From a virus: DNA of 64,000 nt. Shown here piece by piece: positions 1 to 53,520 of this stretch. The notes under the pieces are model-generated. The model worked only from the letters and a program-made list of their open reading frames with translations, was not told the DNA's origin and ran no database searches. Location: UHGV virus genome UHGV-1493261. One strand, written 5' to 3'. Every line of letters starts with the position of its first letter. Within the stretch, counting starts at the first letter, position 1. The translations under genes were made by a program, and so were the position numbers.

Positions 1-2
1 TC

Positions 3-614: not shown

Positions 615-1660
615 TGGAAATCAAAGCAATAAACAACAATGACATGCTGAAACAGGCTGTCTTGGCTATCCGTGAATTCGGGATCGAATCTGATCCTGGT
701 AATGCTGAAATCAATACTGATAGCACCCGCTTCCTTGATGGCGTGACCATAACCGTCGCCGACATCCGTGACCGCTGGCTATCCGTTGAAGGTCGTAACT
801 CATCGGCTATCGCCGCCATCGGCGAGACCTTCTGGGTTCTGTCCGGGCGCGATGACGTTCGCTTCCTGTCCCGCGTGTTGCCCCGCGCCGCCAACTTTTC
901 CGACAACGGCCACACATGGCGAGCTGCTTATGGTCCGCGTCTGTACGCTCATGGTCAGCTGGATAGCGTTATCAACCGCCTGCGCAAGAATCCAAACACT
1001 CGCCAGGCGTACCTCACCATCTATGATCCGGCTCTGGATTCAGATGCTGGTCTGGCGAAGTTCAGTGAGAGTGGCGAAGCAAAGACCAAGGACATGGTGT
1101 GTAACCTGGCTCTGTTGTTCGCCATCGTTGAAGGTCGCCTGAACCTGACGGTTATCAATCGCTCACAGGATGTTCTGTGGGGTATGAGTTCAATCAACTT
1201 CATTGAGTTCTCTATTCTTCAGGAAGTGATTGCTCGGGTGTTGGATGTTGACGTCGGCCAGTACAAGCTCTTCTCCAACAATCTTCATTACTACAACAAT
1301 GAAGTCAGCCAGAAGCAGCTGGGCAAGATCACGAAGGACACCAAAGTAGAAGCTGGGTTCATCAACTCCATGATCCACTTCACGAACGTGACCAACCAGA
1401 ACCATATCCGCGATCTGTTCACTGGCGTGCTTGTTCATTGTGACTTCGGTAGCCCTTGGGAAACTGTTGTTGCCTTCCTGAAGGAGTATGATGCGGATCG
1501 CGGTCTGATTGTGCAGATGGCATACTGCCTGCACTGCAAATTGAATAACAAGCTCATTAACCTGGACCTGATTCAGGATCATGGATTGAACACCGCGCTC
1601 ACCCATTCTCCGGTTGACCGCAAGATCGTTGATCCTAAGTTCCTGGAAGGTGTAGTATGA
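614..1660 (+). CDS. Thymidylate synthase-fold pyrimidine hydroxymethylase (candidate dUMP hydroxymethylase)
   Basis: 348 aa. The segment DMVCNLALLFAIVEGRLNLTVINRSQDVLWGMSSINFIEFSILQ parallels the ThyA / dCMP-hydroxymethylase catalytic core (Cys nucleophile followed by the Q-R-S-x-D-V/F-x-G motif); TRQAYLTIYDP resembles the ThyA R-R-x-I motif. Confidence 0.65.
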   Translation: MEIKAINNNDMLKQAVLAIREFGIESDPGNAEINTDSTRFLDGVTITVADIRDRWLSVEGRNSSAIAAIGETFWVLSGRDDVRFLSRVLPRAANFSDNGHTWRAAYGPRLYAHGQLDSVINRLRKNPNTRQAYLTIYDPALDSDAGLAKFSESGEAKTKDMVCNLALLFAIVEGRLNLTVINRSQDVLWGMSSINFIEFSILQEVIARVLDVDVGQYKLFSNNLHYYNNEVSQKQLGKITKDTKVEAGFINSMIHFTNVTNQNHIRDLFTGVLVHCDFGSPWETVVAFLKEYDADRGLIVQMAYCLHCKLNNKLINLDLIQDHGLNTALTHSPVDRKIVDPKFLEGVV

Positions 1661-2226
1661 TGTACCCAAATCTTGAATTCTTTACGGGGCGCAAGCGTTC
1701 CGGTAAGGACTTCTGTTTGGAGTCCCTCATCAGATATCACCAACTACAGGGTGATATGGACATCCAGCGCCTTTCGTTCTCAGATGAACTGCGCCGGGTT
1801 GCCAACTTCATCTATCCATGGCTGCCAGCGGAGGTAGAGGATGCCGTGAAGGACGTTCCTTACGACCACCCTGATAACCCCAAGGGCTTAACCCCACGGC
1901 AGATCTGGCTTCATCTAGGCAGCGATACGGGCTTACGTTACGTACAACCCGATCTGTTCCTGGCGTTCTTCAAGCGCTTCCAGCTTCCTCTGGTAGAGCA
2001 GAACCCCCACGTCCATTATATCGTGAGCGATCTGCGTACCCCTCAGGAATATGAATGGGCGCTGAGTACGAAATGTCCTATCACCCGTATTTCAAAGGCC
2101 GATCGTGCTGGTATCATAGAGGACGATATAGAGGCTTTCATTGACCAAATGAAAGTGGACTACGAATTCCTCAATCCATTTGATGGTTGGGAACCGTTCG
2201 TTAAATTCTACGGAGAACGTAAATGA
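1657..2226 (+). CDS. Deoxynucleoside monophosphate kinase (T4 gp1-like)
   Basis: 189 aa. N-terminal FTGRKRSGKD matches the gp1 dNMP kinase P-loop (GxKRSGKD). ATGA overlap with the upstream gene. Confidence 0.6.
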   Translation: MMYPNLEFFTGRKRSGKDFCLESLIRYHQLQGDMDIQRLSFSDELRRVANFIYPWLPAEVEDAVKDVPYDHPDNPKGLTPRQIWLHLGSDTGLRYVQPDLFLAFFKRFQLPLVEQNPHVHYIVSDLRTPQEYEWALSTKCPITRISKADRAGIIEDDIEAFIDQMKVDYEFLNPFDGWEPFVKFYGERK

Positions 2227-2777
2227 TCACAGCAGGGCATATCAAAAGCCTGCTCGAACTCCAAAAGGCCACTAACGTGGCCTACTTTGGGGAAGAGTGG
2301 AAGAATGTATGGAGTCAGAACGCAGTTATCAACTCCATCTATCGTGAGTGGGCAGAGTTCCTTGATGAAACCACCCGTGACTGGAAGGTCTATGGCAACG
2401 ACATCGGGTTTGACCATACGAACGCAGTTTATGAACTGGTGGACGTGGTACACTTCATGTTGTGCTTCATCCTTGTGGACCGCACCAAAGGTGAGATCGA
2501 AGAAGAATTTGAAGTCCTGAGTAATCGCGAATTCACCCCATCTGCTTTGGGTGTTGTAGGGCATCGCAATGTTACGTACCGCCTTGGGCAATTCATGAAC
2601 GATCCTTGCGTTGAGACTCTCATGTTCTTCCTGTCGTCTGCGTGTTCTTATATGGAGATCGACATTGAGACTTACATACTGGCGCACAAACGCAAGAACG
2701 ATCGCAATCGTCTGCGTGCTTCTGGTGGTGCGGATTACGACAAGTCCGCAGAAACCCCTCTGACCCTGGAGTTCTAA
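2223..2777 (+). CDS. All-alpha NTP pyrophosphohydrolase (dCTPase/dUTPase gp56-like or MazG-like)
   Basis: 184 aa. Helical, acidic patches (EWAEFLDE, ELVDVVHF) typical of dimeric dUTPase/MazG-type NTP-PPases. Overlapping start couples it to the kinase. Confidence 0.45.
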   Translation: MITAGHIKSLLELQKATNVAYFGEEWKNVWSQNAVINSIYREWAEFLDETTRDWKVYGNDIGFDHTNAVYELVDVVHFMLCFILVDRTKGEIEEEFEVLSNREFTPSALGVVGHRNVTYRLGQFMNDPCVETLMFFLSSACSYMEIDIETYILAHKRKNDRNRLRASGGADYDKSAETPLTLEF

Positions 2778-8290: not shown

Positions 8291-8491
8291 ATGAAACGTG
8301 AAATCATGGATGTGTACGAGCCAGGATCTTGTTGTCCTGGCCATGACAAGTATCCATCCGATACTTACAAGAATCGACGTTCCAAAGCGCAACGCTCCAA
8401 GAGCATTAAGAAGGAGCATCGCCACGCTCGTCGTGTCAAGCGTCTGGGGCTGAAATCTGACCTGAATACCATTACGCGGGAGGACTTTTGA
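8291..8491 (+). CDS. Hypothetical small basic protein
   Basis: 66 aa, Lys/Arg-rich; AGAGGAAA RBS. Confidence 0.5.
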   Translation: MKREIMDVYEPGSCCPGHDKYPSDTYKNRRSKAQRSKSIKKEHRHARRVKRLGLKSDLNTITREDF

Positions 8492-8703
8492 TGGAATGTT
8501 CATGCGGAGGGCAGGGCACAAGTGCCTACATGCCATTCACCACTGTGAAGGAAGCCGAAGCCGCTGGATTTGCCGTGGACAAGGCTCCCTGTGTAATCGC
8601 CACGAAGGATTGCCCGTGCTGTAAGAGGCACTCTCAGGACGTCTTCTACGCCCCTGATGCGCGTCCGGCTACGGTCAACCTGCTCTCACTGATGAGGAAG
8701 TGA
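8488..8703 (+). CDS. Hypothetical Cys-rich small protein
   Basis: 71 aa with CSCGG and CPCC motifs; ATGA overlap with the upstream gene. Confidence 0.45.
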   Translation: MMECSCGGQGTSAYMPFTTVKEAEAAGFAVDKAPCVIATKDCPCCKRHSQDVFYAPDARPATVNLLSLMRK

Positions 8704-8826: not shown

Positions 8827-10257
8827 ATGATCCCTATCCTTGAAACAGTCCACCGACTTCGCGAAACCAAAGGCAGCAATGCGAAGAAAGCCGTGCTGAC
8901 CGAAGCATTCAAGAACAACCCAGACTTGGCAGACTTCCTGCAGTATGTCTATGACCCAATGACGTCGTTCTATCGGACTGAGTTGAAGCTCAGCGCGTAC
9001 CCTCGCATGCTCGTCCGTGAGAAGACCGATGACATTAGCGAAGTCTATGGCGTCCTCGACCAGATGGCGCAGCGCCTTGTCGGTGGCCAAAAGGCTGATG
9101 CCCTGTTGGCCTCTGTCGCCCTGAAGATGGATCCCCAATACCACGAACTCATTCAGATGATCCTAGACCGTGATATCAAGGCGGGTATCGCTGAGAAGGG
9201 CATCAATGCAGCGTTCAAAGCAGCGGGTGGCACAGGCCGACTGATCAACATTCTTCCGTATCATCGTTATGACAACATGACGATTGACCTGCTGAAGAAG
9301 ATGGACTTCAAGCGTGGTGTCTACAGCCAGCTGAAGTCAGACGGTATGTTCGCCAACATCATATGTCGGTACAATAAAGAGCCTGAGATTCGCTCTCGAT
9401 CCGGTTCCCTTATCGCAGGCGGTTCGGTTGACAACCTGTCACTGGTGTTCAAGGACATCATCTACGATGCGGGGATTGGTGAGAGTGTGTTCCATGGTGA
9501 ACTTCTCGTTGTTGACCTCAAGTCGAATACCATCCTGCCTCGTGCTGTCGGTAACGGTAAACTCAACAGCGTGATTCAGACAGGAGAACCCCTAGAAGAT
9601 CGTTATCGGGTGATCTACCGGGTGTGGGATGTTGTGCCGTATGAACAATGGTTCAACGCCCAGCGCGTGGATACCCCGTATGAGCGCCGCTTCGATATCA
9701 TCCAGCAACTGTTTGATGAAGACGACGGTCTGGTTCAGGTTCAGGAAACTCGTGTTGTTCACTCATTTGCCGAAGCCGTCGACCACTTCAAAGACGCGCT
9801 GGCTCGCAAAGAAGAAGGCACGATATGTAAGGCCGCAGACATGCCGTGGGAAGATGGTACTTCTTCTGAAGGTCTGAAGCTGAAGATGGAGGTTGAGTGT
9901 GACCTTGAAATCGTGGGCTTCAACGAGGCCGACAAGAAGGGTAAACACGCCAAGACTTTTGGCTCACTGATTTGTAAAACTTCCGACAGCCTGCTTGTTG
10001 TTGGCGTATCAGGGATCTCAGATGAGCTGAGACGCCATATGTGGGAGAACCAGGGCGATTACATTGGCAAGATCGCCGCAGTGCTCTCCAATGGCGTACA
10101 GGACAAGACAGACGATGCGATGAAGTCTTTGTTCCTACCTCGCCTTGTAGAAGTCCGCATTGACAAGAAAGTGGCCAACACACTGGATGAAGTCTATGCG
10201 ATACAGAAAGCGTACATCGAAAACATCGCATTCCTGTTGGAGAAGGGAAATGGGTGA
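8827..10257 (+). CDS. ATP-dependent DNA ligase (T4 gp30-like)
   Basis: 476 aa. Adenylation motif I KSDG (K-x-D-G); motif IV-like EEGTICK; motif V-like LKLK. Confidence 0.8.
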   Translation: MIPILETVHRLRETKGSNAKKAVLTEAFKNNPDLADFLQYVYDPMTSFYRTELKLSAYPRMLVREKTDDISEVYGVLDQMAQRLVGGQKADALLASVALKMDPQYHELIQMILDRDIKAGIAEKGINAAFKAAGGTGRLINILPYHRYDNMTIDLLKKMDFKRGVYSQLKSDGMFANIICRYNKEPEIRSRSGSLIAGGSVDNLSLVFKDIIYDAGIGESVFHGELLVVDLKSNTILPRAVGNGKLNSVIQTGEPLEDRYRVIYRVWDVVPYEQWFNAQRVDTPYERRFDIIQQLFDEDDGLVQVQETRVVHSFAEAVDHFKDALARKEEGTICKAADMPWEDGTSSEGLKLKMEVECDLEIVGFNEADKKGKHAKTFGSLICKTSDSLLVVGVSGISDELRRHMWENQGDYIGKIAAVLSNGVQDKTDDAMKSLFLPRLVEVRIDKKVANTLDEVYAIQKAYIENIAFLLEKGNG

Positions 10258-39288: not shown

Positions 39289-39503
39289 TTGGATTCACCG
39301 ACGAGCTGCGCCTTGGTCATCCCAAGGAGTTGATCTTTATGCTCAGGATTGGCGCCGTTCTTTAACAACAAATCCCAACGCTCTTCATGGTACTGTGGGT
39401 CCAGTGCTTCATCAAATGTGATGTGGTGGCGGAACATAATAGTTGCCACTGAATGGACGCAGTGAGCGATTGCGCGCTTCATTGTTCGGGTATTCTTGAT
39501 CAT
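39285..39503 (-). CDS. Hypothetical protein
   Basis: 72-aa ORF overlapping the stop of the upstream gene. Confidence 0.45.
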   Translation of the reverse strand: MIKNTRTMKRAIAHCVHSVATIMFRHHITFDEALDPQYHEERWDLLLKNGANPEHKDQLLGMTKAQLVGESK

Positions 39504-39606
39504 TTGGATTCTCCCATGACGATAACGGAAGCACCAAAAGCCGCTTCCATGTTGAGTAGAGACATATCTTCAATTCGTTGCATTGCCATGATGTATATTC
39601 TTGCAA

Positions 39607-39648
39607 AAAGAAAGGGGAACGGGCTAATAATAACCCATTCCCCTTTAT
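39607..39648 (-). terminator. Intrinsic terminator
   Basis: Minus strand GGGGAATGGG-(loop)-CCCGTTCCCC followed by TTTCTTTTT. Confidence 0.5.
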
Positions 39649-39671
39649 TGAAGGAAGCAACCCCAGTCAGA

Positions 39672-39839
39672 TTACTTTTTCTTCAGCTCTTCCAGTTTGG
39701 CTTCGATTTGTTCTAGGATATCTTTACCCTTCTGAACAATCACTTCACCATCTTGCGCGTGTTTACGGAAGACCAAAGCACCAGCGATGAAGCCGACAAC
39801 CGCGCCAGGAAGCGCATAAACCAGCAGATCTTGTAACAT
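39672..39839 (-). CDS. Small TM protein (55 aa)
   Basis: Not in ORF track. GAGAGGA RBS before ATG; MLQDLLVYALPGAVVGFIAGALVFRKHAQDGEVIVQKGKDILEQIEAKLEELKKK; terminator directly downstream. Confidence 0.45.
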   Translation of the reverse strand: MLQDLLVYALPGAVVGFIAGALVFRKHAQDGEVIVQKGKDILEQIEAKLEELKKK

Positions 39840-39875
39840 GATAATATCCTCTCTTTATAGGCGAGGATATTTATA

Positions 39876-41111
39876 TCAGCGTTTCAAGAGTGCCATGAGG
39901 TTGACGCTGCTGGACTTCGGCTTGTCCTCAACCTTGCGCACAGGCATCTTCAGGTTCGTACATACCTCGGATGGTTCCCAGCGCGTACCCTTTTGCAGGT
40001 GCCAGATATGCAGAGGAACACCAGTCTCAAAGAACACAGGCATCTTCCACTTCTGGACGCCTGGAACGTGCCCTGCAGGAGCCTTTTCACATAACAGGGT
40101 ATCTGGCAGCCAGAGCGAACGGGCTTCCCAGAGCGCTGCGCAGGAGTATTCAGGCCAGACGCGTTCCATGTAGTCTATCTCATCCCAGGTACGCTCTGCG
40201 TCCCACCCGATGTAACGGGTATTCTTCAGTCGGAAGAATTTCTTCAGCCAACAAGCACCGGAGGTTTCAAAGTTCAGGCGGTTGATGAACGTCAGGTGCC
40301 CGAACTCAGCCACACAATCCTGGAACGCCTGCTCAAGGTCGGCCTCAAGGATGTCACACTCTTCATCCGTGATAGGACAACCGTTGATCTTTTTCTTCCC
40401 GTGCTTGGTCACCCAATCGTCACGGTTGGACAAGAACGCCGCACCGTTGCGGTTGGACTCGCTTCCATCACGATCACGCAGCATGAAGCCAGGGACGTCA
40501 ATGGTGTATTCGTTCCCGAAGACCATGTTCAGGGCTTCCAGGAAGTTCCAGGCGCTCAGGCGACCGAAGTATTTCCAGGACATCGCCGTGTCCCACAGCT
40601 GGGTGAATTGTTCTGTCTTATCGATGCACACCAACATCCCACGGAAAGCGTCATATTGAGTACGACCAGCCAGCCAGTCAATATAGGACTGAACACACGG
40701 AATCATCTTGGACTTGCGGTAGCGACAGTCAGTATCGAATCGCATGCGTTCAAAGTTCAGGTTGTACCAGTCTGAGAAGCGCTGCATCTCTTCCTTAGAC
40801 TGAGGCGGCACAGGGAACTCACTGTAGATAGTCCACGGCCCGACGGCGTTATAGCAACAACCCCACAGGAATGCCATCCAGATCTTGCGCTCGACTTTCT
40901 GTTCGAGGCTGATGCCTTCAGTGACTTCGATCGCATAGTCCATCAGACGCATCTGCTGGTTGTGCTCTTCTGTGTAGGACAGCGCCTCCACCCAAGCCTT
41001 GAGCAGGTACATGCGATTCTCAGGTTTACGGTAGTCAACAGCTAGGTCAATCGGGTACTTCCATTCAGTAGGAGGCGTATAGCCCGTCGGCATTTTAGAT
41101 AGATGCGTCAT
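39876..41111 (-). CDS. Hypothetical protein (candidate DNA-modification enzyme by neighbourhood)
   Basis: 411-aa ORF adjacent to a P-loop kinase; no motif recognised. Confidence 0.5.
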   Translation of the reverse strand: MTHLSKMPTGYTPPTEWKYPIDLAVDYRKPENRMYLLKAWVEALSYTEEHNQQMRLMDYAIEVTEGISLEQKVERKIWMAFLWGCCYNAVGPWTIYSEFPVPPQSKEEMQRFSDWYNLNFERMRFDTDCRYRKSKMIPCVQSYIDWLAGRTQYDAFRGMLVCIDKTEQFTQLWDTAMSWKYFGRLSAWNFLEALNMVFGNEYTIDVPGFMLRDRDGSESNRNGAAFLSNRDDWVTKHGKKKINGCPITDEECDILEADLEQAFQDCVAEFGHLTFINRLNFETSGACWLKKFFRLKNTRYIGWDAERTWDEIDYMERVWPEYSCAALWEARSLWLPDTLLCEKAPAGHVPGVQKWKMPVFFETGVPLHIWHLQKGTRWEPSEVCTNLKMPVRKVEDKPKSSSVNLMALLKR

Positions 41112-41586
41112 CTTTCGCTTCCTCTTCAGGAGCCAGCTGAATGTCTTCTGGTTTCACGAACCCCATCGGACGTTCCCACATATCGATAAAGCGACGGTCA
41201 GCGGTCACGAACCACAGACGGGCTGCAGTGTGGGTCTTACTCGAGATGAACATCTGAGCATTCGTCTGGGTACGGAACGGAGCAGCCTGCAACCACTTGC
41301 CGAAGTCTTTGGACGACGGGTTGGCGTTCAGCTGGAACTGAGGGATGACGCAGTTCTTTTCAGGAATCAGGCGCACGGCAGTAATGTGCTTGGCGTTTCC
41401 GGTGTAGTCAATCGCAACAGCCACAGCATCGCGAGGGATTTGAATTTTCATTTTGGTTCCTTGAATATTTTGTAACCAGCAGCGCCGATAGACATCACCG
41501 CGCCAATACAGTACATCACAGTCACGTTCAACTTCTCTGAGGTTGTTAAGTCCAGAGGGGTGAAATGATAAGCTAGGGCAGTACAC
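41095..41586 (-). CDS. Hypothetical protein
   Basis: 163-aa ORF. Confidence 0.5.
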   Translation of the reverse strand: MYCPSLSFHPSGLNNLREVERDCDVLYWRGDVYRRCWLQNIQGTKMKIQIPRDAVAVAIDYTGNAKHITAVRLIPEKNCVIPQFQLNANPSSKDFGKWLQAAPFRTQTNAQMFISSKTHTAARLWFVTADRRFIDMWERPMGFVKPEDIQLAPEEEAKDDASI

Positions 41587-41647
41587 ATTGAAACGGCTGC
41601 CATAACCAGACCAATGAACAACAGATAATTAGACAACCGTTTCATGA

Positions 41648-42565
41648 TCACCCCTTCTTCATCAGGTCAAGGAGAGAGCGCGACGCTGCCTTCGTTGCTT
41701 CTGGCTGGGCGCTCGCCTTGGTTTTAGTTTTGGATGCCTTCTGTGGCTTCTCAGGCACTCTGTGCGCCAAAGGATCCTGGCCGCCGATTTCACGAGTCAT
41801 CGGATTGGTTTCACAGTAGGCGTAAAAGTCTTTGGTGTCCATGTTAACTTCACGCAGTTCGGACCGTATCTGATGACAAATCGCATTACCCACAACCCAC
41901 AGCGGGGCGTCGTATGGGAGCACCGCCAACTCGGACTGCTGTTTGGTCGTGAACTCCTGGGTGTTGGTCTCTGGCGCTTTATACAGGATATCCTGTCCGC
42001 TGTAATCATCAACAGCCACAGTGAAGCCCAGCGCCAGCATTTCGGCCTTCGACTTCTCAAACTCCTTGGAGTAAGATTCGTTGCGCGACCAGCCGGAGTT
42101 CCCTGCTTCTTTACCAGAGCGACCACGGATACGAGCATCGTACTGATAGCGGTCGGGGTACGCAAAGTACAGCAGCGCCAATGATTCAATCGGATAGTTC
42201 TTGAACATCCATTCAGGACGCCATTTGTCCGATAGCATGAGGGGTTCTCCATCACACACCAGAGTGTAACCCTGAACCAACCAGCACTTGATTAGATCAC
42301 GAGCAATATCGCCTGAGCCTGTAGCAGCATGGATTGCATCCATTGAAGTCCAGGAAGCCAGGCCGGATTTGTTAGACACGGTGTACTGTCCAACGAAGAT
42401 TAACTTCAGCTCTCCGAACTTCAAGCCAAACGGGCGAGTCTTGTCACCAACGGTGTAGGTCAGTTCGGTAGGCTCCAGCTTAGTGCGCAGCCATTCGATG
42501 AACTGGACAACACGGGTGCCCTTACCCGTACCGCTGGTTCCTTTCACTACGATAATTTTTGCCAT
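41648..42565 (-). CDS. P-loop kinase (candidate 5-hydroxymethyl-dU DNA kinase)
   Basis: 305 aa. Walker A GTSGTGKGT at the N-terminus; Lys-rich C-terminal tail. Confidence 0.5.
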   Translation of the reverse strand: MAKIIVVKGTSGTGKGTRVVQFIEWLRTKLEPTELTYTVGDKTRPFGLKFGELKLIFVGQYTVSNKSGLASWTSMDAIHAATGSGDIARDLIKCWLVQGYTLVCDGEPLMLSDKWRPEWMFKNYPIESLALLYFAYPDRYQYDARIRGRSGKEAGNSGWSRNESYSKEFEKSKAEMLALGFTVAVDDYSGQDILYKAPETNTQEFTTKQQSELAVLPYDAPLWVVGNAICHQIRSELREVNMDTKDFYAYCETNPMTREIGGQDPLAHRVPEKPQKASKTKTKASAQPEATKAASRSLLDLMKKG

Positions 42566-42870
42566 TACACAGCATCCTCAATACGCCAGCTCACGCCGCC
42601 CAGCCAAGGTGCCCAGAACACAGCAACCTGTGGGCGGCCATTCTCTTCAAACTTAACTTTATACTGGTCGTCGAAGTTATAGAAGATTTCATCTGCTTCA
42701 GAGCGCTGGCCGATCTTCACCAGTACATCATGAAGAGCCTTGGCTGCACCGATAGGAGTTGGAGTCTCCTGCTGACGAATGAAGTTGTTCACATAGATAA
42801 TCACACCATCCATGTCGCTATCACCGGAATGCTTGTCTGGGGTTTCCCCAAACTTGGATTGTTCTTGCAC
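42565..42870 (-). CDS. Hypothetical protein
   Basis: 101-aa ORF; overlapping stop/start. Confidence 0.5.
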   Translation of the reverse strand: MQEQSKFGETPDKHSGDSDMDGVIIYVNNFIRQQETPTPIGAAKALHDVLVKIGQRSEADEIFYNFDDQYKVKFEENGRPQVAVFWAPWLGGVSWRIEDAV

Positions 42871-42879
42871 GATGTCCTC

Positions 42880-43659
42880 CTATCGGACGTATTGATAATG
42901 ACTAATCAGGCGGTTTACCACTTCGACAATATTGCGGTTCAGGAAGTCGAAGTGGTTCTGGCCTTCTACTGGTTTAATATAAAGCATATCTTCCGAATTC
43001 GAAAGATCCAGTTTTTCATAATTGCCCTGAGGAACAAAGATGACAAAGATGTTGTTCAGGCCACACGGCTCGACATACTTCGGATTGTCATCAATCAGGA
43101 CATCGCCAGCCAGCAGATGCTTTTCGTCGGTGCTGACAAACCCGTTGAAGATACCAGGGAACTTATCATAGACAAACTGACGCTTGCTGCGCTCGTGTTC
43201 CGGCTCGCACTTCGACACCGCGATGAATTCAACATTGTCGAAATCTTCAAGCAAGATCTCCTTCAGATTCACCAGGAACTCGTAAGCGCCGGGGAGCGGG
43301 TTCATCTTGGCGTACAGGTCAGGGCGACGCCACCAATCCATAGGATCGTTACCGCTTGGCACACGTTGTTTGTGCATCCCCAATTGGACTTCATGGTATA
43401 GCCACGCCGGATGCGCACGTTCACGCATCAGAATAGCCAGGTCGCCAGCATGGGACATATAACACTCTTTGGTGATCGGCTGGAACTGGTATGACTTATG
43501 TTCCCCCGTAGCGATAGCAGCGGCGGCGATGTTCTCTTCGTTGAACCACTGCACCCAAGGGGAGAGGCTGTCGACCAACGTCAGGTCAACATCCACGAGG
43601 ACGCGATACAGGCCACCGACCTTTGATTTCATATCATAGATACAAACCAGGTTGTTCAT
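42880..43659 (-). CDS. HAD-superfamily 5'(3')-deoxyribonucleotidase-like protein
   Basis: 259 aa; N-terminal LVDVDLTLVDS resembles HAD motif I (D-x-D-x-T). Confidence 0.45.
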   Translation of the reverse strand: MNNLVCIYDMKSKVGGLYRVLVDVDLTLVDSLSPWVQWFNEENIAAAAIATGEHKSYQFQPITKECYMSHAGDLAILMRERAHPAWLYHEVQLGMHKQRVPSGNDPMDWWRRPDLYAKMNPLPGAYEFLVNLKEILLEDFDNVEFIAVSKCEPEHERSKRQFVYDKFPGIFNGFVSTDEKHLLAGDVLIDDNPKYVEPCGLNNIFVIFVPQGNYEKLDLSNSEDMLYIKPVEGQNHFDFLNRNIVEVVNRLISHYQYVR

Positions 43660-43997
43660 TTGTCTTCCTCAACTTTATCGTAGCCTGTAGCAACACACTG
43701 TTCTTCGGTACAATCTGCATACAGAACGACGGAGGCCTGCTTCACGTAGGTGGTGCAGTGGTAAGTTTCGTCTTCCTGGATGGAATCGTCATAGTTGCAG
43801 ACAGTTTGGAGCGGACCCGGAGTAGTGTTGTCCAGTGCTGCATGCGCCTTGATGGTGTCTTCCATCTTGGACACGGCCTGCTCATTGGTGAACGTCGGCG
43901 CGTCAAGGTCTACAGTAGACGCAACGTCCAGAAGGGTGGAACACGCAGTGGTAGAGAAAGCCAGAGCACACACCAGAAGAATCTTATTGAGTTTCAT
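43656..43997 (-). CDS. Putative lipoprotein
   Basis: Start at MKLNKILL with AGGTGA RBS. Signal peptide ILLVCALAFSTTAC with a lipobox-like Cys, followed by 4 further Cys. Confidence 0.5.
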   Translation of the reverse strand: MKLNKILLVCALAFSTTACSTLLDVASTVDLDAPTFTNEQAVSKMEDTIKAHAALDNTTPGPLQTVCNYDDSIQEDETYHCTTYVKQASVVLYADCTEEQCVATGYDKVEEDK

Positions 43998-44026
43998 TTC
44001 AATCACCTGTTTGTCAAAGGGTTAAC

Positions 44027-44052
44027 AGGGGGAATTATATCCCCCTTTGGTT
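44027..44052 (-). terminator. Hairpin / putative terminator
   Basis: AGGGGGA-ATTATA-TCCCCCT with a T-rich flank; sits between the polymerase stop and the lipoprotein start. Confidence 0.4.
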
Positions 44053-44059
44053 TATTGAA

Positions 44060-45641
44060 TCAACCTTTCTTCTTTTGCATCATGGCAAGAAGGTTCACAC
44101 GGCGCTTGTGTGACCAGCCGACCACGTCGAGGATAGACTGAATCGGATCAATGAAGGACTTCTCAAAGGCCGCCTGATAATCCACCCATTTGCCCAGACC
44201 AAGCTCCTCAGGGAAGAACTCAGGATATGCGAAGTAATTCTGGCCGAATGGGTTGCCCGGCTTCAACAACACCATCTGTACCTTATCACCAGACTCGATC
44301 ATCGGTAGACCCAGATCTTCGTTCTTCTCAACCAGACGGTTGTAACCCACACAAGCCTTGGCAGCAAAATGAGCACCAGAGATGAACGATCCGTCAGCAG
44401 CCACACACTTCTCTATGTCGGACACGCCTGACGCCTTGGCGATATCGTCTACAGAGAGTTTCATGTACTCCTCTTTGTACTGGGAGATGAGCGTCTGCAC
44501 TTCCTCTTCGGTGCCGAGTAGGATCTTCTCATAGCACTTAACAAGACGCTCACGACACCATTCCGGCGTGGTGGACTTGCGGGCTTCCAGACCTTTGAAC
44601 TTGATCTTCGGCTTCTCGTACTTGATACCCTCACTGTCGTACACGGCCATGGCATACATCTTCTTGGCTCGCCAGACAGCGGCTGACGCAATGACCTCAC
44701 GCTCCCATACCATGCGCTGTTCAAATCCGTTCATGGTGTTACACAGAAGCTGTGCCCACTCATTGGTCTTCGGCTGGTAGTTGTCTTTGATCCATTGGTC
44801 GATATTATCAACCATAGCATGATGGTCAGTAACATCAGGCCACAACTGCTTGACAAGACGCTCAATGCAGATGTAGTTGGAGTCGGTATCCCCTGCGATG
44901 ACGAAGTCCTGGCCTGTTGTACCACACAGCTTGTTCAGATAGTCATCAGTGTAACGCTTGTTCCACTTGTTGATCAGCTGACCGGATGTGGTGATGGCTT
45001 CGGCAATGTTGAGGTTGAAGTACTCTTTGAACCAGACGTTCGAGATAGCGCCATAACCTGCGTTCATCAAGATCTTCAGACCTTGCTGTAGGGTGTCTTG
45101 AGCAACACCCAGATCTTCCCACTTCTTCATCACTTCGGTCAGGGCATCAAGATCAATGTTCTTGTGCTCTTCATACCACTCTGGGTCATAGTAGCGAGAC
45201 TTCATGGCAGACTCAAGATGGAAGTCGCCCTTCGACATCTCTTTACACCAGCCAGCCCACTGCTCATACTTCAGACCCTTGGCCTTCTCTACTTTACGGT
45301 CGCTGTAGATACCACGCATGATTTCAGACAGGAACGACATCTTCTCGTTGCTGAAGAATTGAACGTTCGGCGTGAACGACACGTTGTAGCGGCGCAGGGT
45401 TTCAAAGTGGAACTCACCCAGGGCAACCAACTCATCAACAACCTGCAGGCGTTCGTCAACCGCACGCAACAGCTTGTCGTGAAGGGCTTTCATCAACCGA
45501 CGTTTGTGCATCGGCGTTGCCATGTTATTCATCTGAGCAGCCAGCTCTTCACACATAGCCTCAATAATCTCACGGCGCTGGTGTTTGTCGCCAACGATAG
45601 TCTCTGGACCGAGGTTGTACTGCTGAATGATGTGTGGATAT
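44060..45641 (-). CDS. DNA polymerase (family B, T4 gp43-like), exon 2
   Basis: Begins YPHIIQQYNLGPETI (completes motif A; T4 SLYPSIIRQVNISPETI). Motif B KILMNAGYG; motif C VIAGDTDS. The first 16 codons of the ORF-track ORF are assigned to the intron. Confidence 0.8.
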
Positions 45642-46824
45642 CGCTTGTGTTCAGGGATGCTCGCTATTTCATCCCCCGTGTTCGTCATTCAGTTTACCGA
45701 ACACTGCTGTATGTCACCATACAGGCCAGACTATATCACAATCTCCAGAACTGTCTAGAGATTCTCTCCATTTCGAGGCGCTTGCCCCTACTCTACTCGC
45801 TTCAGATCAGACGCTTAGTCGTCGGTCTTGCTTTCGATAGTCGTTGAACCTTGTCACCCACTACTTCAAGGAAATCATCTGGGTTTAACCCAGCGTAACC
45901 AAAGAGTCGTTTGAAGTTTCTTGCCAACTTGCCCCACTCTACAGTCTTCTTACCTAAATCCTGTTGTGTCAAGCAATGAGCGGTTATTTCTTCCCCACTC
46001 ATTCTGGCAAACATTTCCTTCCTTTTCTCTAAAGAATCTTTAAATTTCTTCTTCGCTTTCGGATCGGCGTTTGGTCCCACCTGGCCTTTCTTTGCGCCTA
46101 TTATACATTTCAACTCACCACTCAAATATCTCGGGTCTTGCGTTGAAACTTTGATAACACTACCATCCAGGAGTCTTACGGGGACAGTGCCTTTGTGAAC
46201 AAGACTGGAATTGGCTTTAATTCTTTCAGCTGTTTCTTTATCAGCGCCGAAATAAGCCTTACCCTTCATATCTGCCCTTTTAACACCCTTCTTAGATTTG
46301 GATATCTTTCTTCTGACATCTTCCCTCTTCGAAGGATTCCCTTCTCCCGTCAACATTTCAACATTCTTTCTTCTCAATTCCTCACTTAGTTCCCCGTTAT
46401 GGGATTTCATCATGAAGTAGGCGAAGAACGCTGATTTATCTTCTGGTAATGCTTCATGCAATAGGCGATGAGCCTCCACATGATCTTTGTACAACAGGTT
46501 TACGATATTCCATTCTTCTTTAGAGAACTCAGGATAATGCGCCTGGGGCAGTATATGATGGTGCTCACTGTATTCATCACCATCATAACTGTGTTCCTCA
46601 CAGAACTTCAAATATTCTTCTATCTTAGATTCTTCAATTACCAAATCATTTCGATAGAACAGACTCTTGATTTCCTTCATGACCTTACTCCTTCACCGTG
46701 GTTACAGAGTATTTAGGTCTTCGTGGCCGACCTTGGCTGCTGATTATCTCTAAAGAGACTTCCCAGCAATTAAGAGAGTTATTCGATGGTTGTCGCCAAC
46801 CAAAGCCCCTATGCTGCTAACTTA
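45642..46824 (-). mobile_element. Group I intron (inferred) in the DNA polymerase gene, carrying an HNH homing endonuclease
   Basis: Exon 1 stops 5 codons after DLNSL; exon 2 resumes at YPHII. Boundaries placed so the 5' exon ends in U and the intron ends in G, giving DLNSLYPHII. GATATAGTC (S-element-like) lies near the 3' end. Confidence 0.6.
45802..46680 (-). CDS. HNH homing endonuclease (intron-encoded)
   Basis: 292 aa. HNH motif HHILPQAHYPEF...NIVNLLYKDHVEAH; Lys-rich C-terminal DNA-binding region. Confidence 0.75.
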   Translation of the reverse strand: MKEIKSLFYRNDLVIEESKIEEYLKFCEEHSYDGDEYSEHHHILPQAHYPEFSKEEWNIVNLLYKDHVEAHRLLHEALPEDKSAFFAYFMMKSHNGELSEELRRKNVEMLTGEGNPSKREDVRRKISKSKKGVKRADMKGKAYFGADKETAERIKANSSLVHKGTVPVRLLDGSVIKVSTQDPRYLSGELKCIIGAKKGQVGPNADPKAKKKFKDSLEKRKEMFARMSGEEITAHCLTQQDLGKKTVEWGKLARNFKRLFGYAGLNPDDFLEVVGDKVQRLSKARPTTKRLI

Positions 46825-48242
46825 AGGGAGTTCAAATCTTCCGAGAAGACCCAGAAGTAGATTCCTGGTGTCACATCCATGACGTATGCACCCTCAAAGT
46901 CGGTCGGACCATCGTATACACGCTGGATCTTAGGCACTATCCCCTTCTCATACAGGCGATAGTAGCACATGGCCAGCCACGGAGCCACAGTGCCCAGACC
47001 GTCTTCATAGTTGGACTTGGTGCGGTACGCAAGGACGAACATCAGCTGGAGCAGACGCAGCTTCTGTTCAAGTCGCCATACCAGCTTAACGTCTTTGATA
47101 CCATATCGGGTGTGTTTGCAGTAGTCGTTGAAGTACAGATCAAAGAGCGACTTGCTCTCACTGTAGTCCATCTTCTTCTCACCCAGCTCACAATACGCAA
47201 TCCAGTCAAGAGAGTAGCGTTCACGGGTGGTGTACGTGTGTTTCTTGTAGATCTGCATATAATCGAGCATAGGGCAACCCACGAACTGATACGTCGTGAT
47301 GTCACCCTTCTTATCACGGATGATGCGCTTCTTAATGATGCCCCAAGGACTGAGGCGCGACGTTTCAGCCTCACCCAGAACCTGATTCATGCGCTCAACA
47401 AGATAAGGGCTATCAAACGTCTCAATGTTCCAGCCAGTCCATCCGTCGAACTGACGCTGTGACCAGAAGTCTAGGAACGAGCGCAGCAGATCTTGTTCGG
47501 TGGTGAACTCCTGATAAACAACCTCAAGGCCGCCGATCTCTTTGTCTTCGGTGTCATATGCGAACTTATTGCGGTCTTTGGCACAGGGCATACCCCAGAC
47601 CATGAACTTATTGGTCGCCATATCCTGAAGCTGGATCAGGGTAATGGGGAACGCCGCATTCATGTCTTGGGTGATCTTGCCGTTGCTGTCAATGATAGGG
47701 AACTGATCAGTGACGTTGTTGCTGATGAAAGAACCAGGGAAGTGCTCACGGACAAAATCATGGTTGGCCAGCACTTGTTTATGGAAGCGGCGAATGCGCG
47801 CCTCATTCCCTTTGAACGTCTGCTGCTCAATGGTTGGGTGAGGGAATGGACCTTTGGTCATCTTTCCGTCTTTCCACCCGGCGGAGAACACTTCGATATC
47901 GAGGTTAGCAATATGGATGTTGGTGTAATCCGGCTCAATCTTTCCAGGAAAGCTATGGGCGATGAACTGGTATGCATAATCGGTCTGCCCGTAAATGGCA
48001 GCACCCTGGACTTCCTTGTACTCTTCAAGATAGTTGTCAGCGTCACGCATGGAAGGGAACTGCTTGGCTACCAGGGGTTCATTGAGCAGGCCGACCTTTT
48101 CAACATTTGAATAGTCAGCCGTGGGTAAATAGAGAGTAGGTTCGAATTTCTTTTTCAACAGACGGCGATTACCCATGTCATCTGCAATTCGAATCAACAG
48201 GTCATTGCCCCTGCGGGCAACGTTCGTATAGAAAACGGTCAT
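46825..48242 (-). CDS. DNA polymerase (family B, T4 gp43-like), exon 1
   Basis: N-terminal 3'-5' exonuclease domain (Exo I ANLDIEV); ends in the first half of motif A (DLNSL). Confidence 0.8.
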
Positions 48243-48321
48243 GTAATTCTCCAGGTTATCCGTGCCGTTAGCACGTGGGCATATTTAACCATAGAGCCAT
48301 TCATTGACCAAGGAGTTTATT

Positions 48322-48894
48322 ATGGCAATCCCCCTCGTTGGTATGATCCCAGGGGTGCTCAAGCAACTCTGGAACCTCGGGACTGATTTGATCCAATATA
48401 AGCGGGAAGTTGTACAGGCCAAACACGACGTCAAGCTGGAGGCCATCAAGTCCTCCTCAGATTGGGAGCTGTCTAAGATTACCGAAGTCGGCGGATCTTG
48501 GAAAGACGAATTCTGGACTATCGTGTTGGCCATACCCGCCATCCTCGTCATGACTGCTCCGGTTGTGGAACTGATTCTGTTCCCTGGTGAGTATCATAAA
48601 GGGGATTTCATCAAAGCAGTAATCGGTGGCCTTCAGGCACTAGATACCGCGCCTGAATGGTATACCTATTCGTTATTGACAGCAATTAGTGCATCATTCG
48701 GTATCAAAGGCTACAACCACTACAAAAGCAACAGGCGAAAAGCCCAAGCTATGGATGCTCTCAAGCAATTTGGGGTTCGGGTCGTACAGAAAGATCCCAC
48801 TGTTGTTACTCAGTCGGGTTCTCCCGATCTTGAGTCTGCTCCCCCAGCTGGGTCTACTGCGACCTCTGGTGCGTGGCCTGATCTGAAGAAATAA
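48322..48894 (+). CDS. Hypothetical membrane protein
   Basis: Start at ATG after AAGGAG (ORF-track TTG at 48304 not used); hydrophobic segments. Confidence 0.5.
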   Translation: MAIPLVGMIPGVLKQLWNLGTDLIQYKREVVQAKHDVKLEAIKSSSDWELSKITEVGGSWKDEFWTIVLAIPAILVMTAPVVELILFPGEYHKGDFIKAVIGGLQALDTAPEWYTYSLLTAISASFGIKGYNHYKSNRRKAQAMDALKQFGVRVVQKDPTVVTQSGSPDLESAPPAGSTATSGAWPDLKK

Positions 48895-50444: not shown

Positions 50445-51659
50445 TCAGGAAGGGGTGAATTCGTTTACAGGCACTGCTTCGGGGATAGCCAGTTCAGGAC
50501 ATGCTGCCTTCATCGGCTCGATGTACGGCTTGCTACCCACAATCCAGAACAGAGTGTTCTCATTGAGCAACTCTGGCTTGTTCTGCTGGATCCAGGTCAT
50601 GACCTTGCCTTCATAGCGAGGATGCAACTCAATATCACCCCACTGATATTCCATCAGGTCATTGTAACGAACCCAATTAGTGGTGTGAAGATCCCAATGG
50701 TGTACCTCAAAGCGAGGAAGCACGACCTCTGGCTCTTCCTTCTGCCTGATACCACTTAGGAGGCCAGCCAGAGAAACGCTCTTAGAGGCATGCTGAAGCT
50801 CCTTCTTACCGTGTACATAGTCTGGGTTGTCGTGATAACGACGAGTGAAGTCGACAATGTGTGGCAGATTCGCCTGTTTACCGATGATGCGCAGGCGGCT
50901 CTCGATAAAGTCAAGGCGGTTAGGACCGATGCCGATCAGATACACACGCTTCAGATTAGGTTTAGGGTGCATCGCCAGTCCAGTCAGAATGCTTGTGCAT
51001 GAGTTGCAGGATCCAGCAGGGATAATCAGATCGGTAATATGGTCAGGGATGTTGGCAACCTGCTCGCCACCCAGCATATGGAACCCAGCAATCCTCTCAG
51101 GGGAGTGGGTTGTATGGTCGAGAGTGATACCATACTCCAGATAATACGCCTTTGGATTCTGTTGTTCGATCAACTTCTTACAGCGCGGCTGGATGGTGCT
51201 GTTGTATCCCGATCCGACGAAGTTGAACTCACTACCAAACCAGGCCGACATTGCCACCATGTCGTGGTTCATACATGTCGTGGGTTTGGTCGCGCCGAGT
51301 ACAGTAGTTGTGTGGCCACCGAAGTGCCGAGAGACTGCTGTCGCCATAGGGGACTGTGGACTACCAACGACAGTGCCGTGGATGATGTCGGGGGAGCCTC
51401 CGGCCTTGAGGTGCTCAACCATCAGCCAGATGGCCTGACGGAGTTTGCTGCCGTTGATACCCTGTTGGCCATTCGCGTAATTGGACAACGGTGCGAAGTA
51501 ATCTTCACGCTTGAACCAGACCTGCTGGTTGGTTTCGGGATTGACGACAAGTTCACACGGGGTGTGCTTGTAGAGATAGTCTTCCCAGTGAACCAGATTG
51601 CGGTCGAGGGAAAGGGTATCGAAAATGGTCTTGTTCATTCTATTTTCTCCTGTAGACAT
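50445..51659 (-). CDS. PLP-dependent fold-type II enzyme (ACC deaminase / D-cysteine desulfhydrase-like)
   Basis: 404 aa. FKREDYF ... GINGSKLRQAIWLM ... GTVVGSPQSPMATAVSRHFGGHTTTVLG parallels the ACC-deaminase pattern KRDD ... GGNKTRKLE ... TAGGIQSNHARQTAA with the PLP Lys in N-G-S-K. Confidence 0.55.
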   Translation of the reverse strand: MSTGENRMNKTIFDTLSLDRNLVHWEDYLYKHTPCELVVNPETNQQVWFKREDYFAPLSNYANGQQGINGSKLRQAIWLMVEHLKAGGSPDIIHGTVVGSPQSPMATAVSRHFGGHTTTVLGATKPTTCMNHDMVAMSAWFGSEFNFVGSGYNSTIQPRCKKLIEQQNPKAYYLEYGITLDHTTHSPERIAGFHMLGGEQVANIPDHITDLIIPAGSCNSCTSILTGLAMHPKPNLKRVYLIGIGPNRLDFIESRLRIIGKQANLPHIVDFTRRYHDNPDYVHGKKELQHASKSVSLAGLLSGIRQKEEPEVVLPRFEVHHWDLHTTNWVRYNDLMEYQWGDIELHPRYEGKVMTWIQQNKPELLNENTLFWIVGSKPYIEPMKAACPELAIPEAVPVNEFTPS

Positions 51660-52709: not shown

Positions 52710-52798
52710 TGGCGGAAGGTGAAGGATTCGAACCTTCGGGGGCTAAAAGCCCCACTCGATTAGCAGTCGAGTCCCTTAAACCTCTCGGGCAACCTTCC
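52710..52798 (-). tRNA. tRNA-Ser (anticodon GCT)
   Basis: Manual cloverleaf: acceptor GGAAGGT/ACCTTCC, anticodon loop CTGCTAA, long variable arm GGGGCTTTTAGCCCC, T-loop GGTTCGAATCC, encoded CCA. Confidence 0.7.
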
Positions 52799-53016
52799 AA
52801 TTTGGACGGGCTTCGCACCCGATTGAGCATTTGATCTGCCGTAGCCCAACTCCCCGCGCTTCACAGCGCCGATTGGTTAACTGGTGACCAGTGCCTTCTG
52901 GTTAGATCCCCTGGAACTTTACAGGCTTCGCGCCCAACCATTTCTGGAAGTTGAGGCATCGTTTCCGATGTGGAGTCCCCTCATTTTACACAGCTGGCTG
53001 CAACGCTTACCGTGTT

Positions 53017-53100
53017 TGGTGTGAGTGGATGGATTCGAACCACCGCGCTGTTACGGGGAGATTTACAGTCTCCTGCATTCGACCGCTCTGCCACACTCAC
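53017..53100 (-). tRNA. tRNA-Tyr (anticodon GTA)
   Basis: Acceptor GTGAGTG/CACTCAC, anticodon stem GGAGA/TCTCC with loop CTGTAAA, 12-nt variable arm, T-arm GGTGG-TTCGAAT-CCATC, encoded CCA. Confidence 0.65.
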
Positions 53101-53216
53101 ATTTGGTGGGTGTTACTATCGTCGTCTTCGGATTCCGTTCGGCTATTGGACGTCGCTTCAAGAGCTTGTCGGTCGCGTACTTCTTGCCTATTCACTTTCG
53201 TTCACACCCATAATTC

Positions 53217-53291
53217 TGGCGGTGCCTCAAGGACTCGAACCTTGCTATCACGGATTAACAGTCCGCCGCTTCACCATTTAGCTAAAGCACC
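53217..53291 (-). tRNA. tRNA-Asn (anticodon GTT)
   Basis: Acceptor GGTGCTT/AGGCACC (one G-U), anticodon loop CTGTTAA, T-arm CAAGG-TTCGAGT-CCTTG, discriminator G, CCA. Confidence 0.7.
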
Positions 53292-53299
53292 TGAATATT

Positions 53300-53375
53300 T
53301 GGCATGCCCTCCAGGACTCGAACCTGGGTTGTACGGTTTTGGAGACCGACCTCATAGCCGCCAGATCAAGGGCAC
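53300..53375 (-). tRNA. tRNA-Trp (anticodon CCA)
   Basis: 76 nt with canonical numbering: T-arm CCAGG-TTCGAGT-CCTGG, anticodon loop CTCCAAA, acceptor GTGCCCT/AGGGCAT, CCA. Confidence 0.7.
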
Positions 53376-53443
53376 ACACCTTACAACGAACTATACTGTA
53401 TAAAGGTTATTGAAACAAACGTTTATTTTATTCAACCATAATA

Positions 53444-53520
53444 TGGTGATCCTGATTGGGTTTGAACCAATGACCAATGAATTATGAGTTCACTGCTCTA
53501 ACCGACTGAGCTACAGGACC
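53444..53520 (-). tRNA. tRNA with CAT anticodon (elongator Met or Ile-lysidine type)
   Basis: Acceptor GGTCCTG/CAGGATC, canonical D-arm TAGCTCAGTCGGTTAGAGC, anticodon loop CTCATAA, T-arm ATTGG-TTCAAAC-CCAAT, CCA. Anticodon stem lacks initiator features. Confidence 0.7.

Follow-up and report, generated by a model that had tools for sequence, protein, structure and literature searches.

Predicted 5-hmdU DNA kinase and serine:DNA transferase genes of a ViI-like phage, and the polymerase-like tails of their products

Do the genes around a P-loop kinase gene at positions 39876-43659 of UHGV virus genome UHGV-1493261 hypermodify thymidine at the DNA level? An initial annotation, made from the letters alone, had proposed that they do, and here we followed up this proposal in the 64,000-nucleotide stretch of the genome that contains the interval (the window). 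We found that the cluster is very probably orthologous to the kinase 2 and serine:DNA transferase genes of phage ViI and set in a complete pathway to the hypermodified nucleoside 5-NeOmdU (5-(2-aminoethoxy)methyl-deoxyuridine). The cluster is already known and there is nothing new in its gene content; it adds a further Ackermannviridae copy to a pathway whose in vitro reconstitution dates from 2018-2021, and the relatives RPN242 and SW16-7 (PMC10458263) are already annotated in this way. The only element that may be new is a C-terminal tail resembling that of the phage DNA polymerase, which both enzymes carry.

The interval contains five open reading frames (ORFs), all on the minus strand, with the lengths and positions initially given: 411 aa (39876-41111), 163 aa (41095-41586), 305 aa (41648-42565), 101 aa (42565-42870) and 259 aa (42880-43659). 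Three of the ORFs had been described as unrecognised; however, each ORF of the interval matches some phage protein family (E <= 1e-34), and these ORFs are genuine genes rather than chance frames. The source phage of the window is an Agtrevirus-like, ViI-like Ackermannviridae coliphage. The DNA of the interval is 89-96% identical across its full length to about 20 Ackermannviridae genomes, and a 24-kb segment around the cluster is ~96% identical to Escherichia phages ZQ1, AV101, LHE287 and A221. RPN242, a 95.5%-identical relative, is classified in the Aglimvirinae. The host phage and ViI differ in subfamily, since the closest taxonomically classified relative of the window belongs to the Aglimvirinae whereas ViI belongs to Cvivirinae/Kuttervirus; the gene order from the polymerase to the transferase and orf00248 is alike in the window and in ViI.

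The predicted kinase, transferase and 5-NeOmdU pathway

The 305-aa protein (kinase 2; 41648-42565, minus strand) matched the Pfam family HMUD2 (PF18747) with 527.3 bits against a cutoff of 25, and its residues 1-304 cover profile positions 1-298 of 298. It is 85% identical to ViI gp243 (orf00243, YP_004327565) and has the same flanking genes. The Walker A motif GTSGTGKGT that had been noticed initially lies at residues 9-17 (nt 42515-42541, minus strand), and its G9, S11, G14, K15, G16 and T17 are invariant across 22 kinase homologues. A second kinase gene, cut at its N-terminus by the window edge (kinase 1; 1-614, plus strand), is also real: the fragment holds the C-terminal 203 residues, matches Pfam HMUDK_HMUD1 (PF18748) with an E value of 8e-107, and is 88% identical to ViI gp67. 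Both ViI gp243 and ViI gp67 convert 5-hydroxymethyl-deoxyuridine (5-hmdU) in SP8 DNA to 5-phosphomethyl-deoxyuridine (5-PmdU) in vitro (PMC8989533). Thus, the initial view that either P-loop protein could be the 5-hmdU DNA kinase fits both of them, because both fall in such families, and each shares with its ViI counterpart the Pfam family, the neighboring genes and the P-loop. These comparisons identify the 305-aa protein as a predicted clade-2 5-hmdU DNA kinase and the orthologue of gp243.

Many RefSeq and PHROG labels would instead make the 305-aa protein an ordinary guanylate or thymidylate kinase that acts on free nucleotides. The family phrog_4409 is annotated as 'guanylate kinase', RefSeq labels read likewise, and the best PDB fold matches of the AlphaFold2 (AF2) model of the protein (pLDDT 84.1) are GMP, TMP, AMP and NRK kinases, with a match probability of up to 0.98. 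These matches are remote, however (E ~1e-3, TM score 0.4-0.5, 9-13% identity), and the nucleoside monophosphate (NMP) kinases were reached by fold comparison only, as a PDB sequence search with the 305-aa protein returned nothing at E <= 1. Set against the dedicated HMUD2 match, the phosphorylation of 5-hmdU inside DNA by the 85%-identical gp243, and the position of the HMUD2 gene, which adjoins the transferase gene in every T4-type locus examined, a nucleotide kinase is extremely improbable. The 'guanylate kinase' label in RefSeq and the PHROGs probably arose because of the remote resemblance to NMP kinases. In RefSeq it misnames ViI gp243 (L004 42520-43434) and its orthologues, and 'terminase small subunit' misnames the 5-hmdU DNA kinases ViI gp67 (L009 38203-38865), PhiW-14 gp37 (L017 31347-32132) and PaMx11 gp49 (L005 19218-19787); the former label for HMUD2 and the latter for HMUD1 need correction.

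Homing endonuclease genes were observed next to the kinase 2 gene in relatives of the window. In RPN242, a SegD-like homing endonuclease gene (L001 7039-7725) lies between the gene for the 101-aa DUF7254 protein and kinase 2, and in AV101, Ag3 and P46FS4 a SegD-like or homing-endonuclease gene is found under the same match at this junction. In the window, the 101-aa gene and kinase 2 abut at 42565 with no homing endonuclease gene between them. A number of HMUD2 homologues reach 495-537 aa, and in the match to phrog_15209 ('endonuclease') the kinase corresponds to the C-terminal half of that family. This suggests that the long homologues are fused or mis-joined endonuclease-kinase gene calls.

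The 411-aa protein (39876-41111, minus strand) matched the Pfam family ADDT (PF18724; E 4.5e-60, 203.7 bits, cutoff 26.2), with residues 49-292 covering profile positions 2-228 of 232, and belongs to the amino acid:DNA transferases (AADT; aGPT-Pplase clade 2). It is 90% identical to ViI gp247 (orf00247, YP_004327568) over all 411 residues without a gap; the two differ by point substitutions only, mostly at residues 61-75 and 150-175, and both have the catalytic Glu and Cys, lie downstream of kinase 2 and end in the same tail. Purified ViI gp247 puts L-serine onto 5-PmdU to give O-serinyl-thymidine, and its Cys and the adjacent Glu are essential by mutagenesis (PMC8989533). In the active-site segment ETSGAC (40251-40268, minus strand), Glu282, Thr283 and Cys287 are invariant in 28 AADT homologues and align with Glu243, Thr244 and Cys247 of PaMx11 gp46, whose active site has been defined by crystallography and whose catalytic residues are essential (PMC11472151). 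The AF2 model of the 411-aa protein (pLDDT 89.6) has as its best solved match 8Z2N, which is PaMx11 gp46 (probability 1.0, TM score 0.58 normalised by target); 8-oxoguanine glycosylases appear lower in the list of fold matches, and the fold is the all-helical, DNA-glycosylase-like (HhH) one. A PDB sequence search with this protein also returned nothing at E <= 1, so that the gp46 structure was reached by fold comparison only. PaMx11 gp46 (PUGT, a 5-PmdU glycinyltransferase; PDB 8Z2M/8Z2N) and the 411-aa protein are alike in family, fold and the E-T-x-x-C catalytic segment, whereas gp46 is only 15-21% identical, is 292 aa long, uses the amine of glycine as nucleophile and has no C-terminal extension, linker or tail. 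Taken together, these results identify the 411-aa protein as a predicted amino acid:DNA transferase and the orthologue of gp247. It had first been singled out as the most likely novel enzyme of the interval, with structure prediction as a check; both the family match with 90% identity to a mutagenised protein and the fold match to a solved structure speak against novelty.

The donor and the linkage are predicted to be serine and an O-linkage to the C5 methyl, on the grounds of the 90% identity to gp247 and of a gp226 orthologue elsewhere in the window. Glycine, serine and putrescine all serve as donors within the AADT family (Table 1, PMC8989533), and 10% of positions differ from gp247, so a different amino acid or a polyamine could be installed and the final base would then not be 5-NeOmdU. 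Against this, the decarboxylase partner is 92% identical to gp226, no further tailoring enzymes lie beside these genes, and a 301-Da base is also found in the far more divergent ViI-like Vibrio phage 1.255.O, which together leave another nucleophile very unlikely. The 301-Da nucleoside of 1.255.O was reported previously (PMC5889632); AADTs of other Vibrio phages are ~50% identical to the window AADT.

An AADT homologue was also observed in a T4-like metagenomic phage contig (L013 8616-11734), where its gene is flanked by those for a Tet/JBP dioxygenase and a Ploopntkinase3-type kinase. By its gene content, this Tet/JBP-AADT module is a predicted dioxygenase-initiated version of the pathway.

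The remaining pathway genes are present in the window with a single absence. A thymidylate-synthase-family enzyme, presumed to be the dUMP hydroxymethylase (614-1660, plus strand; PF00303, E 1.5e-15), adjoins kinase 1 as in ViI, and the pathway role of the dUMP hydroxymethylase as the source of 5-hmdUMP is taken from the ViI work (PMC8989533). It is followed by a dNMP-kinase-like protein (1657-2226) and a dUTPase_2-family nucleotide pyrophosphatase (2223-2777, plus strand; PF08761). A pyridoxal phosphate (PLP)-dependent decarboxylase (50445-51659, minus strand) is 92% identical over 394 residues to ViI gp226, which performs the decarboxylation that is the last step to 5-NeOmdU (PMC8989533); its match to Pfam PALP is weak, at 29.1 bits against a cutoff of 35. 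The HMUD2 gene co-occurs with the thymidylate-synthase-family hydroxymethylase gene and the ADDT gene in the window and likewise in a Vibrio phage locus. A tblastn search for an orthologue of ViI gp160 (aGPT-Pplase1/HMUDK_hel) found none within the window; in ViI this gene lies at ~88 kb, beyond the span that matches the window, and it is the sole pathway-associated gene missing.

The enzymatic steps can be assigned to the window proteins because they were shown for ViI orthologues at 85-92% identity. The dUMP hydroxymethylase, the dNMP-kinase-like protein and the dUTPase would supply 5-hmdUTP, to be incorporated instead of dTTP. HMUD2, like its paralogue HMUD1, would then transfer phosphate from ATP to the hydroxymethyl group of 5-hmdU within the DNA, yielding 5-PmdU. 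The AADT is expected to flip the base out, with Cys287 attacking C6 and the phosphate departing, after which the hydroxyl of free L-serine would add to the exocyclic methylene to form O-serinyl-thymidine, and the PLP enzyme would decarboxylate this product to 5-NeOmdU. Profile searches had been named as the check on the proposed thymidine hypermodification cluster; they placed the proteins in HMUD2 and ADDT, with biochemically tested ViI orthologues, and did not point to unrelated families, and therefore the pathway assignment stands.

Polymerase-like tails on the modification enzymes

The B-family DNA polymerase of the window ends in RRVNLLAMMQKKKG, the last 14 residues of its C-terminal half (ORF 44060-45688, minus strand; tail at nt 44063-44104), and this reference tail is the same in ViI. 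Kinase 2 ends in …SRSLLDLMKKG (41651-41683, minus strand), the AADT in …SSVNLMALLKR (39879-39911, minus strand) and ViI gp160 in …GSVNLLDRLKKPE; we regard the two window tails as putative clamp-binding motifs. Kinase 2 of the window and ViI gp243 share the same tail. A motif scan covered all open frames of at least 50 codons, 522 in the window and 1149 in ViI. In the window, four of the 522 frames carried the motif, namely the polymerase, kinase 2, the AADT and a 70-aa Cys-rich protein, with no spurious frames; in ViI, five of 1149 did, all of them genuine genes. As an unbiased test, every open-frame terminus was scored against the last 12 residues of the polymerase within a limited offset. 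In ViI, orf00053 ranked second, and gp247, gp243 and gp160 took ranks 3-5; in the window, the 70-aa protein ranked second, the AADT third and kinase 2 fourth, tied with the ligase. In the Vibrio phage locus (111 frames), ADDT, HMUDK_hel and HMUD2 took ranks 2-4.

The class of tail co-varies with the polymerase tail in five lineages. The four Vibrio proteins have termini that are alike among themselves and unlike the enterobacterial set (polymerase …KKARKLW, HMUD2 …KTKKLW, ADDT …KTRKLW, HMUDK_hel …STKRLW). In Pseudomonas phage Cygsa01, the polymerase ends in …KASVMDFFS, HMUD2 in …TTKNVFDLF, the AADT in …TTNDLMGFFQ and HMUDK_hel in …TTKSVLDLF, and in Delftia phage PhiW-14 the polymerase ends in …AKLGAFFV, the kinase gp37 in …HGLGGFFKG, the transferase gp109 in …TTGLGSFFR and gp72 in …TTTLAQFAP. 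The T4-like phage with the TET/JBP-AADT module has …SLEDFFS on the polymerase and …EELSLFDF on the AADT. The classes can be written as …NLL..LMKK for the enterobacterial phages, …[KR][KR]LW for Vibrio, …V.DFF or …DLF for Cygsa01, …LG.FF for PhiW-14, and …SLEDFF and …LSLFDF for the T4-like TET phage.

A tail of this kind is found in 81 of 82 HMUD2 homologues, and it is joined to the enzymes by variable linkers. The kinase core ends at Pro265-Leu266-Ala267, and between it and the tail lie 0 to ~35 residues with indels among homologues; the 285-aa kinase variants have lost 20 linker residues and kept the tail. In the window, this linker is a low-complexity Lys/Ala/Pro stretch (residues 268-294; 41684-41764, minus strand) of low pLDDT, and pLDDT falls below 50 in both models, at kinase residues 280-296 and AADT residues 393-405. 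AADTs of phages without a T4-type replisome, including PaMx11 gp46, end directly after the catalytic domain and have no tail. Comparison of the C-termini of kinase 1, the decarboxylase, the hydroxymethylase and the phosphatase of the interval found no polymerase-like tail; a tail on the PLP decarboxylase and on kinase 1 had been considered and was rejected on this comparison.

The same type of tail was also seen outside the modification enzymes. The 70-aa protein (8491-8703, plus strand; phrog_4789) has a CxC…CPCC pattern and the C-terminus ATVNLLSLMRK, which of all termini in the window resembles the polymerase tail most closely, and its ViI orthologue orf00053 has the same tail. Its gene lies just upstream of a DNA ligase ORF (8827-10257; ligase assigned from the ViI and RPN242 gene order), and the protein is possibly a small factor associated with the clamp. 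In PhiW-14, an exonuclease (…QGLGGFFA, L017 26496-27356) and an NrdA.1-like protein (…RGLGAFFT, L018 31188-31487) also bear the polymerase-type tail, which may mark a wider set of replisome-associated proteins.

Proposed sliding-clamp binding and its alternatives

The polymerases of T4 and RB69 bind the sliding clamp through a peptide at their extreme C-terminus, and T4 gp33 and gp55 carry 'highly similar', interchangeable C-terminal clamp-binding motifs behind divergent linkers (PMC2988020). The tails described here resemble these gp43, gp33 and gp55 epitopes in that a short hydrophobic peptide at the extreme C-terminus is common to the polymerase and to unrelated proteins and follows a divergent linker of variable length. 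They differ in that the bearers are DNA-base-modifying enzymes and not transcription factors, that the enterobacterial motif is basic (…LL.LMKK) rather than acidic, and that their clamp binding is a prediction from sequence. As a separate observation, the AADT tail of the T4-like TET phage, …EELSLFDF, is close to the classical T4/RB69-type clamp-binding peptide as well as to the polymerase tail of the same phage. The homologues of gp33 in PhiW-14 (…TTSLGGFAAT) and Cygsa01 (…TTASLTTLFG) share the tail class of the polymerase and the enzymes; the window itself does not reach the genes for gp33, the late sigma factor or the clamp. In Cygsa01 (L014 19022-25900), annotated sliding-clamp and clamp-loader genes lie just downstream of HMUD2, ADDT and HMUDK_hel; in two Cygsa01-related contigs (L011, L012), the modification genes are closely followed by clamp-loader genes; and in ViI (L006 27433-32265), a few genes separate gp160 from the clamp-loader and clamp genes.

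The most economical reading of these observations would be that kinase 2, AADT and HMUDK_hel are clamp ligands; if they are, modification would be coupled to replication. Kinase 2 and the AADT would most likely dock on the gp45-type sliding clamp through a peptide copied from the polymerase tail and held on a flexible linker, and modification would follow the fork. Put generally, in phages with a T4-type replisome, HMUD2, AADT and HMUDK_hel/aGPT-Pplase1 would carry the clamp-binding peptide of the polymerase and be tethered to clamps left on new DNA, and we judge the chances that this arrangement both holds and has gone unreported to be evenly balanced. The 2021 paper on the ViI pathway does not mention a clamp (PMC8989533). 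Our full-text literature search, whose coverage was incomplete so that an earlier description is possible, found no paper that links the replicative clamp to these enzymes. Eukaryotic DNMT1 is coupled to PCNA via an internal PIP box, by which a DNA-modifying enzyme is recruited to newly replicated DNA. It is alike to the phage tails in concept, whereas the proteins, the chemistry and the position of the motif are unrelated, and the comparison is an analogy only. The tails offer a testable hypothesis for how post-replicative base hypermodification keeps up with replication, with the clamp as a toolbelt for DNA-modifying enzymes.

Several observations weigh against these proposals. The gp33-like protein of ViI ends in …KSKKLI and not in the motif of the ViI polymerase, the late sigma factor of ViI has no tail, and, although the tails of the enterobacterial phages and of T4 are all hydrophobic, the former are basic and the latter acidic. 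In Cygsa01, the unbiased ranking put only one of the three enzymes near the top, the others resting on a pattern written after the sequences had been seen, and in the locus of Erwinia phage Bue1 the same ranking gave no hit, the polymerase motif there being more than 3 residues away from the C-terminus and so outside the allowed offset; Cygsa01 and Bue1 thus fit by inspection and not in the unbiased ranking. As to the pathway itself, 5-NeOmdU was shown in the cited pathway papers for ViI, CBA120, CBA6 and 1.255.O and not for an Agtrevirus, and the pathway does not explain the existence of two kinases.

A shared tail could also be real and bind another hub of the replisome, such as the single-stranded DNA-binding protein, the helicase loader or the clamp loader, or it could be a degradation or localisation signal. 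In ViI, neither the gp33-like protein nor the late sigma factor has the ViI motif, and the tail is found beyond these enzymes, on the 70-aa Cys-rich protein of the window and ViI and on the PhiW-14 exonuclease and NrdA.1-like protein. However, the reference tail stands at the very end of a T4-type B-family polymerase, which is where T4 and RB69 have their clamp-binding peptide, and a degradation tag on a replicative polymerase is unlikely; together with the gp33 homologues of PhiW-14 and Cygsa01 and the clamp and/or clamp-loader genes near the modification genes of Cygsa01, L011, L012 and ViI, this makes a partner or role other than the clamp rather unlikely. The tails also bear on the two kinases. 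Kinase 2 and the AADT could form a module apart from kinase 1, the paralogues dividing the labor, for example with one kinase bound to the clamp at the fork and the other acting unbound elsewhere, or with one branch leading to 5-NeOmdU and another leading via HMUDK_hel back to thymidine. HMUD2 and ADDT are neighbors in all T4-type loci examined, HMUD1 stands beside the hydroxymethylase, and HMUD2 alone of the two kinases is tailed; moreover, only ~40% of thymidines are hypermodified, and which of five ViI genes are necessary has not been established (PMC5889632). Both kinases give the same product in vitro, however, PhiW-14 has a single kinase and it is tailed, and HMUDK_hel proteins have no known function, so that we hold this division of labor to be possible but on balance doubtful. 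Returning to clamp binding, if tethering is true it could explain the pair of a tailed and an untailed kinase and the partial modification, and it bears on the retention of paralogous kinases and transferases in ViI-like phages and on what caps modification at ~40% of thymidines.

Neighboring genes and signals

The 259-aa protein (42880-43659, minus strand) had been annotated as HAD-type and nucleotidase-like, and this was borne out by a match to PF06941 (35.2 bits, cutoff 24.8, residues 109-198 only), by the HAD motif I DVDLT at residues 23-27 and by LIDDNP at about residues 187-192. PDB deoxyribonucleotidases match it weakly (E 0.0014-0.06), and it is a predicted NT5C-type HAD phosphatase, homologous to 5'(3')-deoxyribonucleotidases. 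NT5C-family genes lie near modification genes in five related loci, those of the Vibrio phage, Erwinia phage Bue1, two Cygsa01-like contigs and the T4-like phage. The enzyme would probably work on the deoxynucleotide pool, and it is plausible that it shapes the pyrimidine nucleotides in particular.

The 163-aa ORF (41095-41586) is a real gene that had been over-extended. It begins at an upstream GTG, and the true gene encodes 118 aa (41095-41451, minus strand), since both phrog_4163, which covers residues 46-160, and the ViI orthologue orf00245, 59% identical, align only from Met46 on. The GTG extension overlaps a separate 67-aa gene that had been missed (41448-41651, minus strand; phrog_4514, E 1.5e-34; ViI counterpart orf00244), whose hydrophobic product is a predicted membrane protein. 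The 101-aa DUF7254 protein (42565-42870, minus strand; PF23912, E 3.7e-52) is present in ViI and Bue1. On either side of the interval, a 116-aa DUF7292 protein with a signal- or lipoprotein-like N-terminus (43656-44006, minus strand; PF23964, E 2.9e-54) and a 55-aa small hydrophobic protein (39672-39839, minus strand; phrog_3879, E 1.2e-31), the last gene of the unit, are encoded. For the 101-, 118-, 67-, 116- and 55-aa proteins, Pfam and PHROG gave no informative annotation and no counterpart was detected in the Vibrio relative; for this reason the ORFs of 101, 118, 67 and 55 aa were not assigned to the pathway or given a function, and the small ORFs between the enzymes appear to be lineage-specific passengers. 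In the region 39400-48600, counts of sigma-70-like promoters and terminators were not above shuffled expectation, and the single signal worthy of note is an intrinsic-terminator-like hairpin past the last gene (39611-39646, minus strand), a consensus match only, with a 16-bp stem and a T run.

The B-family polymerase gene (44060-48242, minus strand) is split in the window into ORFs 46809-48242 and 44060-45688, with a free-standing HNH homing endonuclease gene (45802-46680, phrog_12434) between them. An Rfam search found no group I intron in the split gene. The break falls inside the conserved stretch DLNSL|YPH, and the ViI gene is uninterrupted and encodes 998 aa. A cluster of five tRNA genes lies at 52713-53520 of the window on the minus strand.

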